A DNA stretch of 64,000 nt from Candidatus Hodarchaeota archaeon (GCA_016840035.1 JAEOTC010000030.1:32001-96000); one strand, 5' to 3'. Shown: positions 36,906 to 44,393, counted from the first letter of the stretch. Numbers and translations are program-made. Notes: a model not told the origin generated them from the letters alone.

Positions 36906-37661
36906 ATGTCAATGGAAGATCGTGCTAAATTTGGAATCCCTCTCTTAGACGACGCTTTAGGTGGAGGAGTTCCTCGTGGATCCATAATATTAGTGGAAGA
37001 TGAAGTAGGGATTAATACGGAACATATCCTTGTACAATTTTTGTCTGAAGGATTAAGAACTGGGGAATATGGGTATATACTTTCAACTGAACATCTTTTC
37101 TCTTATTATTCTCCGCTATTTGTCCCCTACAATATTTCGGAAGTGACTTTCGAGACAAAAAGACTCGTTTTCTTAGACGCATTCTCAAATCCATTTGGTT
37201 ACTCTGAAGGTCGACCAAGTACAGCTGGAGAAAACGTAATTCGAGATATCACCCAACCCCGTCAGGTCACAGATCAGATTAGAAGAGCCTTATTACATGT
37301 TCGTTCCCAACCTGTTCGTGGTGTCTTGGATTCATTAACAACTATACTCCTCGTTTCAGAAACTCTCAAAGCCCCGATGGCTTTCCTTCAACATAAAATC
37401 GCTACAGATAAAGAAATGGGAATTGTAAGTATTCTTACCCTTCACAGAGATGTTCACTCTCCGCATATCATACAAGCAGTAGAACATTATTGTGATGGAG
37501 TACTTAGATTAACAAAAGAGACCTCGGATGGAAAAAGTCTTGCACCGACTGATCTACTTCAGATAATTAAAGTTCCTGGTATGTCTTTATCTGAATTAGA
37601 AAACACTCAATTTTCATTTCAACCGAGTCCCGGTCATATTGAATTATCACCAGTATTGTAA
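36906..37661 (+). CDS. RecA/KaiC-superfamily (RAD55-like) protein with degenerate Walker A
   Basis: FGIP.LD..LGGGVPRGS start and LDSLT Walker-B-like motif; P-loop reads EDEVGINTEH. Confidence 0.78.
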   Translation: MSMEDRAKFGIPLLDDALGGGVPRGSIILVEDEVGINTEHILVQFLSEGLRTGEYGYILSTEHLFSYYSPLFVPYNISEVTFETKRLVFLDAFSNPFGYSEGRPSTAGENVIRDITQPRQVTDQIRRALLHVRSQPVRGVLDSLTTILLVSETLKAPMAFLQHKIATDKEMGIVSILTLHRDVHSPHIIQAVEHYCDGVLRLTKETSDGKSLAPTDLLQIIKVPGMSLSELENTQFSFQPSPGHIELSPVL

Positions 37662-42177: not shown

Positions 42178-42363
42178 AGAAAACCTCTGTTACACATTTT
42201 CTATTCGGAGAAATGATTAATGTGCCGCTGGGGCATCTCTAGTTTGTCATTATAAACACTTCAGAAAAGAAACATTTATCATTCATAAAAGTTCAAATGA
42301 AAGTATACTAAATGTTAAGGACCTCATAATAGTACAATTTCATTTTCAGAGTGAGGCAATAAT

Positions 42364-44037
42364 TTGGAATCCGAGAAATTAGAATTACATCAGGAAGTCT
42401 TTCGAAGACGATCAAGACTTGATTTGAAACGTGAAATCGAGGATTGGTTATCTTTAAAGAATTTTCCAGACGAAACCAGAGTCAATCTTTCACTAGCTGG
42501 TCGTCGGTTCGTATTCCAACATAGTAGAATGCAAAAAGCTTTAGGCCCAGTTGTAAGTCGTACTCAATGGTCTCGATACCGTTCAAATCCAGAAATGACC
42601 ATACCTCTCTCAACAATACGTATGCTGGTTGAAAATGAACGAGAACTATTCATGACATCGTTCACGGTAACAAGTATCGGTAACAAGAAAAGTCAGCTCC
42701 CAATAAAACTTCCAGTGAAAACAGAGAGTAATTCTTTAGCGAAATTGTTAGGATTACTCACCTTATCCAAGAATGTATTTCAAACTGGGACCTACCAAAC
42801 TGATCAAAAAGGGAAAATTGAGAGTTTCATTGAAACATTTGATTCGGTATTTGATGTAAATCTATGTCCAGATGGAGAAATTGCCCAGAATCAACGAGGT
42901 TATTATGTTAAAATTCCCGTTCAACTATGTTCTGCCATTGTAAAAGCATTCACAGGAGAATTTCAAAACAGTTTTCCACAAATAATTTTATCTGTCTCAA
43001 AGTGTAAGGATGAACAGGATATTTTAGATTTTGTTACAATGTGGTTGAAATTTTCTCGCCTATATAGGTTTGAAGGGGACGAGGAAAATTTATTCATGTT
43101 CAGATATAATGATGAGACACGAGAAATTGCAAAACTGATTGAAAAATTGGGTGTTAGGTACGAGACAGCATCAATATGGGATCGAGGAAGTGTTGTACCA
43201 GTTTATCGGATCCCTAATGTAGACGACAACAAGGTCATCTTGAACACTGCATCAATTGTAAACAGATTGAAAGATAAAATTGTTAGTCAAGAAGCACGTA
43301 TAAAGGAATTAGAAGCGATAAAAGAGGATTTGGAGGTTGAACTTGAAGGTACGACACAGAGTTCACATGAAAAACTTTCCTGGTCTAGAGCAATTGATGA
43401 AAGGTTAGCAGATAACTTATCGGAGAAATTATTGGAATTTGAAAGAATTTTAATTACGACTAAACGTGAAAATGAAAAACTGAAGAATCTCTTACGAGAA
43501 GGAGGCACTATATCTCCTGAAATCTTAGAAGAAAGCTCTGATAGTACTGTAATAACATCTGATATAGCTAATTTGCGTGAAGAAGTCAATCTCATAAAAG
43601 AAAGACTAACAAATTTGAAAGAACAAAGCCAGGGTGGAAAAGAATTAAGTTACAAGGTAACAAAAGAGATTACAATGAAATCGGGAGGAAGCACCGTTGG
43701 AATGGAGATGGATCTTCGTCCAATAGTGAAAGCACTTCTCGCATCACCTGATAACTGGATCTTATTTGTGCTTGGAACTAATCAACAACTATCAAAAGAA
43801 CAAATTAGTCAAATTTTAGGAATTCCTGCTGAAAAACGGTTAGATTTACAGAGAAGACTAAATGAATATGTTGATAGACGAATAATTAAAGTAATAGAAA
43901 CTCCAGAGGAAGAACTTTATCAGCTAGATAGATGGGAATGGTCTGATCTGATCGGATCCTATACAAACACAATACTAGGGAATAAAGAAGGCGTTCCTTT
44001 GGATGTCAAACAATTAGTAAGGTATATACTACGATAA
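42364..44037 (+). CDS. Hypothetical protein: degenerate LAGLIDADG-like domain + coiled coil + C-terminal winged helix
   Basis: IKLP...LAKLLGLL, FIETFDSVFDV, FPQII...LDFV, EIAKLIEKLGV; heptad region; LSKEQISQILG...LNEYVDRRII. Confidence 0.6.
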   Translation: MESEKLELHQEVFRRRSRLDLKREIEDWLSLKNFPDETRVNLSLAGRRFVFQHSRMQKALGPVVSRTQWSRYRSNPEMTIPLSTIRMLVENERELFMTSFTVTSIGNKKSQLPIKLPVKTESNSLAKLLGLLTLSKNVFQTGTYQTDQKGKIESFIETFDSVFDVNLCPDGEIAQNQRGYYVKIPVQLCSAIVKAFTGEFQNSFPQIILSVSKCKDEQDILDFVTMWLKFSRLYRFEGDEENLFMFRYNDETREIAKLIEKLGVRYETASIWDRGSVVPVYRIPNVDDNKVILNTASIVNRLKDKIVSQEARIKELEAIKEDLEVELEGTTQSSHEKLSWSRAIDERLADNLSEKLLEFERILITTKRENEKLKNLLREGGTISPEILEESSDSTVITSDIANLREEVNLIKERLTNLKEQSQGGKELSYKVTKEITMKSGGSTVGMEMDLRPIVKALLASPDNWILFVLGTNQQLSKEQISQILGIPAEKRLDLQRRLNEYVDRRIIKVIETPEEELYQLDRWEWSDLIGSYTNTILGNKEGVPLDVKQLVRYILR

Positions 44038-44045
44038 AATTCCCA

Positions 44046-44393
44046 CTACAAATTATCAATTACCTTCAAAGCTTGTAAAAGTTCCTCTTTCTCTGAAGAT
44101 TCTTTTTTATCCCCATTAGCTTTCTTTACTAACATTTCCTCCGTTACTGTAAGATCAAATTCATCCTTTTCTGGTAGAAAGATATCTGAAGTAATTTCTT
44201 CAATTTTTGGAGGAATATCAGATATTGAGGGTGAATCTTCATGAGTTATCCTTCTCAAGGATTCTTTTAACCAGTCTATATCATTTTGCAGTTTATTAAT
44301 CGCTCTACTTTGAGTTTGGATTTGGTCACCTAGTAATCTTGCAACTTTGGTTAACGTTTCAATTTTTTTTGCGTTTAATTCACCTAAGTCCAA
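44046..44393 (-). CDS. Hypothetical coiled-coil protein
   Basis: N-terminal heptads, acidic linker, C-terminal helix EKEELLQALKVIDNL. Confidence 0.7.
   Translation of the reverse strand: MDLGELNAKKIETLTKVARLLGDQIQTQSRAINKLQNDIDWLKESLRRITHEDSPSISDIPPKIEEITSDIFLPEKDEFDLTVTEEMLVKKANGDKKESSEKEELLQALKVIDNL

Follow-up and report, generated by a model that had tools for sequence, protein, structure and literature searches.

A conserved LAGLIDADG-fold protein of the Hodarchaeales that lacks the catalytic acids: evidence for domestication and a proposed role as a dimeric DNA-binding regulator

Introduction

Has the scaffold of a homing endonuclease been turned into a cellular protein in the Hodarchaeales, at present regarded as the order of archaea nearest to eukaryotes? 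The question is raised by one gene in a 64,000-nucleotide stretch of DNA from a Candidatus Hodarchaeota archaeon (GCA_016840035.1, JAEOTC010000030.1:32001-96000), here called the window. A preliminary description, made from the sequence, read the gene product as a catalytically dead, domesticated LAGLIDADG protein fused to a coiled coil and a winged helix, and proposed that it is a dimeric DNA-binding or chromosome-organising protein. The chief documented recruitment of a LAGLIDADG homing endonuclease to cellular regulation is WhiA, a bacterial protein. Other LAGLIDADG proteins, the maturases, bind RNA. In full-text literature searches, no account of a domesticated LAGLIDADG protein from Asgard or other archaea came up. 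With this in mind, we analysed the fold, conservation, distribution and surroundings of the Hodarchaeales protein and weighed several readings of its function.

Results

The gene and its upstream region

Translation of the window reproduced the 557-aa ORF exactly, at 42364-44037 (+), as 557 codons and a stop with a TTG start. A Shine-Dalgarno-like GTGAGG lies at 42351-42356 (+), 7 nt 5' of the TTG, and the start together with GGGTGAGG is kept in four sister species. G+C is 32-40% throughout the window, and the composition of the ORF is unremarkable.

Comparison between species also revealed an upstream block at 42262-42285 (+; 24 nt, or 42247-42285 at its widest) that contains two TATA-like elements and lies in the 186-nt divergent intergenic region common to this gene and a VTT/DedA gene. 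The block is identical across five species despite synonymous sites that are near saturation between them, and it occurs once in the genome; on these grounds it is probably the promoter of the ORF. As it has no second genomic copy, the idea of a repeated binding site was rejected. A promoter at the TATA-like elements would give a leader of ~60-90 nt. A scan for sigma-70-type promoters, which does not apply to archaea, stayed at background level. A search of public sequencing runs listed no RNA data set that holds the sequence.

Sequence searches define a narrow family

Searched at full length against Pfam and NCBIfam, the 557-aa protein gave no significant match, only sub-threshold coiled-coil noise that included weak Rootletin and SMC matches in the helical region. 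The PDB sequence library returned nothing, whether searched with the protein or with a profile. A word-indexed search recovered 66 homologues, nearly all of them full length (~520-630 aa) and a few partial, from MAGs labelled Hodarchaeales, Heimdallarchaeota or Promethearchaeota; all the named ones are annotated 'hypothetical'. When a profile of the N-terminal 296 residues was run against 1.84 billion cluster representatives, 16 clusters were found, all of them the protein's own family or its fragments. The family is thus narrow, and HMMER finds no link from it to other families. A language-model search with the C-terminal part reached unnamed bacterial clusters only (score 0.85) and was uninformative.

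Searches directed at LAGLIDADG and intein families were similarly faint. LAGLIDADG Pfam families gave no match at E <= 0.1 in any of 32 family members, and an hhalign comparison with a single free-standing Heimdall LAGLIDADG protein (P0082) gave a probability of <1%. Against 33 canonical endonuclease domains taken from inteins of Heimdall genomes, the first lobe aligned with an E of 0.011 and a probability of 3.9%, which is not significant alone, and the second half aligned out of register. Neither the protein nor the 32 family members matched the Intein_splicing or Hint domains, or the WhiA_N, LAGLIDADG_WhiA and HTH_WhiA signatures of Pfam and NCBIfam.

Structure models place the core in the LAGLIDADG fold

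AlphaFold2 models were made of the full-length protein (mean pLDDT 75) and of residues 1-296 (pLDDT 87.6, pTM 0.84). The core without catalytic acids spans residues 111-296 (42694-43251, +), and in the models residues ~118-296 take a two-lobed LAGLIDADG fold. Residues 125-293 of the N-terminal model follow the order alpha, short beta hairpin, alpha, beta-beta, alpha, all of it twice. Lobe 1 is built from a helix at 125-132, a short hairpin at ~138-146, a helix at 149-163, strands at 175-183 and a helix at 186-197. Its counterpart, lobe 2, has helices at 204-213 and 217-230, a hairpin at ~234-247, a helix at 250-261, strands at 267-273 and 276-284, and a helix at 287-293. The first hairpin of each lobe is modelled much shorter than in active enzymes, and the short hairpin of the second lobe is partly deleted in eight family members.

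A VIA-align search of 48,161 representative chains, which is independent of Foldseek, returned LAGLIDADG proteins in all of the top 15 places (Z 13.3 to 5.4), and the next, unrelated chain had a Z of 4.3. The best match was the TliVMA intein endonuclease (7qsu; Z 13.3, 172 aligned residues, rmsd 3.2 Å), followed by WhiA (8dy9_I; Z 11.3, 163 residues, 3.7 Å), PI-PfuI (1dq3; Z 10.8, 162 residues, 3.5 Å) and I-DmoI (2vs8; Z 10.6, 156 residues, 3.5 Å). Lower ranks, down to Z 5.4, included I-Tsp061I, PI-SceI, the WhiA of T. maritima (3hyi_A, Z 9.4) and I-WcaI. Foldseek agreed for both models in placing LAGLIDADG proteins on top, with a probability of 0.91-1.00 in all 50 of the matches listed and an E of 1e-4 for PI-SceI (1vde).

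The preliminary description had let its reading stand or fall with a duplicated LAGLIDADG fold of the dodecapeptide type, and this fold is borne out by the topology of the model and by top matches that are LAGLIDADG proteins only. The motifs that it quoted are present in the translation, and the three kinds of protein that it had named for a fold search (I-DmoI, WhiA and intein endonucleases) are all among the top matches. One further chain, PI-PkoII (2cw8), was also considered as a homologue of the N-terminal domain, as 251 residues aligned, the N-terminal region among them; it was set aside with a Z of 10.1 that is not above the core-only matches.

Both catalytic positions are empty

Homing endonucleases bind their metal ions through an acidic residue (Asp or Glu) placed at each signature-helix base, such as D20 and E117 in I-DmoI (PMC3384342). 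The first signature helix of the Hodarchaeales protein (LLGLLTLSK; residues 125-136, 42736-42771, +) ends in T-L-S-K, with Ser/Lys at the position of the catalytic Asp. The weak hhalign alignment sets S135-K136 against the D-G of the 33 Heimdall intein endonucleases, which fits the structural placement. The second signature helix (FVTMWLKFSR; residues 217-232, 43012-43059, +), present in both models as helix 217-230, ends in F-S-R, where S231 and R232 are nearly invariant. In the family alignment, columns 123-146 and 223-236 are free of Asp and Glu in all 32 sequences. Conserved acids do occur in the second signature helix, as E217, D219 and D222, but at its other (N-terminal) end. The absence of acidic catalytic residues, claimed earlier for this one protein, thus extends to the family, and the alignment supports a core that is non-catalytic and has lost catalysis. 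Canonical intein endonucleases of the same genome keep intact motifs, so the loss is specific to this gene. The most invariant residues of the protein lie in the short saddle hairpins (TGTYQT, NQRGYY, FR and Y281).

The protein was also said to lack intein splice residues. This agrees with the null result for Hint and Intein_splicing domains and with an ORF that stands alone, has its own conserved start and Shine-Dalgarno-like element, and begins with a helical region, not the beta-rich Hint fold.

A basic HTH-like domain precedes the core

Residues 25-110 (42436-42693, +) form a basic helical domain (pI 10.5) with helices at 44-50, 54-60, 66-74, 82-88 and 92-99 in the N-terminal model. VIA-align related it weakly to XRE-type HTH proteins (Z 3.8 and 3.5). 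Of the HTH-like segment announced ahead of the core, the basic helical region is therefore there, and its identity as an HTH is weakly supported by these two values.

The domain and the core were also matched as one unit in the ESM Atlas. Residues 24-296 resemble a 371-aa archaeal cluster (TM 0.70, 265 residues), 66% of whose members carry LAGLIDADG_3, and a 452-aa Iainarchaeota cluster (TM 0.69, 262 aligned residues). The language-model neighbours of residues 22-116 are archaeal clusters, several with LAGLIDADG_3 (scores 0.77-0.89), which we treat as a lead only. From the unit-wise match and these neighbours, a joint descent of the core and the HTH-like accessory domain from an archaeal endonuclease is probable. 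That ancestor may have been free-standing or intein-borne.

A helical region and a winged helix that is predicted to dimerise

Residues 297-445 (43252-43698, +) form long heptad-rich helices with flexible breaks, either a coiled coil or a linker. Heptad scores peak in this region, and the full model has helices at 298-334, 339-379 and 399-423. Most of the region is modelled at low confidence, with pLDDT <50 at 382-401 and 418-447. The ~130-aa coiled coil of the preliminary description is thus upheld in its long helices and heptad signal, but low-confidence breaks interrupt it in the model. On the opposite strand, a 102-aa ORF (43287-43595, -) lies inside the part of the gene that encodes these helices; it probably owes its existence to the repetitive Glu/Leu/Lys codons and is unlikely to be a gene.

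Residues 446-557 (43699-44034, +) comprise a winged helix with flanking helices. In the full-length model, Foldseek matched the winged helix to PefR of the MarR family (E 0.036, probability 0.99) and also to an O-methyltransferase. Sub-threshold Pfam matches were to TFIIE_alpha (seven members), HTH_20, MarR (one member, E 0.017) and ScpB. Together these matches sustain the C-terminal winged helix that had been proposed.

The support for the proposed dimeric state comes from a model. Folded as a homodimer, residues 286-557 reached 0.59, whereas none of the three controls exceeded 0.00; the score of 0.59 may reflect likeness to the winged-helix dimers that are common among solved structures. The mark applied for a dimer was reached by 20 of 30 proteins solved as same-chain pairs and by 1 of 23 solved as single chains, counts that are approximate here since the alignment supplied was our own. 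The runs agreed in at least 51% of contacts, with a partner pLDDT of at least 56. Confident contacts fall at 451-472, 483-486 and 521-557, and within the helical region at 306-316 only, which puts most of the predicted interface in the winged helix, along helices 451-472 and 521-557. Outside the HTH-like domain, the protein's three other parts (core, helical region and winged helix) have acidic pI values of 5.1-5.2.

The gene is single-copy, confined to one order and under purifying selection

The window's own genome has one copy. In a sample of 400 genomes of the phylum, the gene was present in 20 of 21 other genomes of the same genus and in both genomes of a second family of the order (22/23 other Hodarchaeales), and it was found in 0/376 of the remaining genomes, which include 31 of a sister family in the same class. 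The one same-genus genome in which it is missing is 74% complete, and contamination is 9% in the one genome where two copies occur.

Pairwise dN/dS against close relatives was 0.025-0.086 overall and ~0.03 in most pairs. By part, it was 0.000-0.039 in the HTH-like domain, 0.004-0.076 in the LAGLIDADG core, 0.000-0.109 in the winged helix and up to 0.12 in the helical region, which is the least constrained. The marks of a mobile gene, namely an intron, an intein or sporadic multiple copies, were not seen, as there is one copy per genome in the same neighbourhood in the same-genus relatives examined. The two checks suggested earlier, on dN/dS and on distribution among Asgard genomes, thus point the same way, and the claim of domestication holds up well: a single copy at a fixed locus, order-wide presence with none elsewhere in the sample and strong purifying selection support a domesticated gene that is not mobile.

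The neighbourhood is inherited synteny

Close relatives keep the whole neighbourhood, in which a Gar1-like gene, S8e and a VTT/DedA membrane protein stand on one side of the ORF, and a small coiled-coil ORF, polB, an RsmB-like methyltransferase and NMD3 on the other. The neighbours of distant members are others: CTP-transferase-like and PCMT-like genes; an Arf-like GTPase and an RHH protein; or a CDP-alcohol phosphatidyltransferase and NMD3. The position near polB, to which the preliminary description had drawn attention, is therefore real in close same-genus relatives only and is lost in distant members. This indicates inherited synteny and is no indicator of function, and we reject polB as a functional link. 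No conserved neighbour or operon that would point to a pathway was found in the close or distant family loci examined.

The small coiled-coil ORF (115 aa; 44046-44393, -) runs towards the gene on the opposite strand and has stayed beside it in close relatives (L001 9708-10076, L002 9709-10041). It was considered as a conserved partner through a BLASTP match (E 1e-4) to a 110-aa ORF close to a distant member of the family (L004 8225-8557) and was rejected, as tblastn did not recover the match at seven loci from distant members. No counterpart was found at another locus, L005. Elsewhere in the window, a KaiC/RecA-like ATPase at 36906-37661 (+) also exceeds the threshold that Pfam sets for PAXNEB, the family of Elongator Elp4 (29.9 bits against 28), and its position is conserved in relatives.

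Discussion

A proposed dimeric DNA-binding regulator

Taken together, these analyses suggest that the protein is a dimeric DNA-binding regulator built on a non-catalytic, domesticated LAGLIDADG core, a reading to which we give a probability of roughly 60%. We infer the DNA binding and the role from the folds. It probably descends from an archaeal LAGLIDADG homing endonuclease that already bore an HTH-like accessory domain at its N-terminus. The long helical linker and the C-terminal winged helix would have been added in the ancestor of the Hodarchaeales, where the gene would have become fixed as a single cellular copy. The present protein is predicted to be a homodimer held by the winged helix and the start of the helical region, which would leave two modules of HTH-like domain and LAGLIDADG core on flexible arms. 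The basic HTH-like domain and the winged-helix dimer would probably contact DNA, and the acidic core with its shortened hairpins may be a rigid scaffold that, as in WhiA, binds a partner or contributes contacts to the DNA backbone. Such a protein would be expected to regulate transcription at specific sites or to bridge DNA.

The pI of the HTH-like domain counts for DNA contact and the acidity of the other parts against it, and the HTH assignment, with a Z below 4, also speaks against the regulator reading. The acidic core (pI 5.2) and the shortened hairpins argue against classical saddle binding. Nevertheless, the invariance of the hairpin residues also fits a direct role of the saddle in the recognition of DNA, RNA or a partner.

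Alternative readings

The protein might instead be a structural one that organises or segregates chromosomes by bridging distant DNA through coiled-coil arms, and not a gene-specific regulator; we think this unlikely. It would account for a predicted dimer whose two putative DNA-binding ends are set apart by ~150 aa of heptad-rich helices, for single-copy conservation across the order, and for a sub-threshold ScpB match in some members and low-probability MukF matches of the full model. The ScpB and MukF signals are weak, however (Pfam E 0.067; Foldseek probability 0.35-0.38), genes for partners such as SMC or ParA are not linked to the locus, and the helices are interrupted and of low confidence, with confident pairing in their first turns only.

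A somewhat more doubtful reading is that of an order-specific architectural factor, in which the winged-helix dimer would form a hub for two former endonuclease modules on flexible arms. With the same tentative standing, the saddles could recognise one long asymmetric site in DNA or in structured RNA, and the dimer could pair two distant copies of it, for example at replication or segregation loci. If true, this mode would be one not described for any LAGLIDADG-derived protein.

We consider it improbable that the protein binds RNA in the manner of the LAGLIDADG maturases, with the remnant of the saddle reading a conserved RNA (rRNA or an intron element) and the dimer serving in RNA processing or ribosome biogenesis. 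The placement of the most invariant residues on the short saddle strands does suggest one target shared across the order, and the neighbourhood of close relatives has genes for ribosome and RNA functions (S8e, Gar1-like, an RsmB/Nop2-like methyltransferase and NMD3), of which S8e or NMD3 is near distant members too. Among the same neighbours, however, are polB, redox enzymes and a membrane protein, and archaeal synteny of this kind is weak evidence that is not conserved gene by gene. In addition, HTH-like and winged-helix domains are typical of DNA binders, and no RNA family or intron is linked to the gene.

That the protein is a still-active endonuclease or selfish element with a non-canonical active site is very improbable: it has the endonuclease fold and keeps acids elsewhere in the core, but E217, D219 and D222 are far from the helix base where metal ions bind, both canonical acid positions are empty in 32/32 members while the canonical intein endonucleases of the same genome keep their motifs, and the gene is a single copy at a fixed locus with a dN/dS of ~0.03 and no intron or intein host.

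Under the preferred reading, that of a dimeric DNA-binding regulator, a strongly conserved, lineage-defining 'hypothetical protein' gains a fold-based hypothesis, and the gene would offer a compact natural example of the reuse of a selfish nuclease scaffold.

Comparison with known systems

The best structural matches are to archaeal LAGLIDADG homing endonucleases (7qsu, 1dq3, 2vs8 and I-Tsp061I, 2dch, with Z 13.3, 10.8, 10.6 and 9.6, and also PI-SceI, 1vde). A faint echo of them is left in the first sequence block, as a P-rich lead-in, a helix with G/A at position 3 and an F..F block. In contrast to these enzymes, the Hodarchaeales protein is without both catalytic acids, its first hairpins are shortened and its core is acidic; its gene has neither a Hint domain nor an intron as host, and is single-copy, syntenic and under strong purifying selection. 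Free-standing LAGLIDADG_3 proteins of DPANN archaea (the Atlas clusters of 371 and 452 aa) match the N-terminal domain and the core as a unit, but are shorter and are without the long helices and the winged helix.

Related genomes also hold LAGLIDADG proteins of the usual kind. Two genomes of another Heimdall family (G085 and G086) have 10-11 LAGLIDADG_3 matches each, mostly in ~520-550-aa ORFs. The one of these ORFs that was read (L038 484-2052, +) keeps its GDG and DADG motifs intact and carries an extension at the N-terminus and an XRE-like HTH at the C-terminus. The ORFs of these two genomes resemble active free-standing endonucleases that occur in multiple copies. A genome of the same genus encodes a 550-aa free-standing LAGLIDADG protein (L040 1351-3003, -) with intact motifs and apparent repeated HTH units in front, which illustrates the combining of HTH accessory domains with the LAGLIDADG fold in this lineage. 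In the window's own genome, ORFs of 1154, 1096 and 1722 aa with canonical LAGLIDADG_3 lie on contigs C25, C17 and C2 (L019-L023) and are presumably inteins.

The closest parallel in cellular use is WhiA/DUF199 (3hyi, 3hyj, 8dy9). Both proteins have a monomeric two-lobed LAGLIDADG fold without an acid at either signature-helix base, both tether this core to a separate HTH-type DNA-binding domain, and both are encoded by single-copy conserved cellular genes. In WhiA, the separate HTH makes base-specific contacts, and the endonuclease-like domain serves to bind WhiB and, by a different surface, to touch the DNA backbone (PMC10243135, PMC3384342). The HTH is C-terminal and sigma-4-like in WhiA, whereas the HTH-like domain of the Hodarchaeales protein is N-terminal. 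The latter also adds ~150 aa of long helices and a C-terminal winged helix that is predicted to dimerise, and its family is archaeal, confined to one order and unrelated to WhiA in sequence at the HMM level. Since no WhiA Pfam domain is matched, the order of domains differs and residues 24-296 resemble free-standing archaeal LAGLIDADG clusters (TM 0.70), the Hodarchaeales protein probably has an origin separate from that of WhiA, as the preliminary description had supposed in speaking of an independent domestication. The family would then be a second, apparently separate recruitment of a LAGLIDADG protein, with a new domain architecture, and an archaeal parallel to WhiA.
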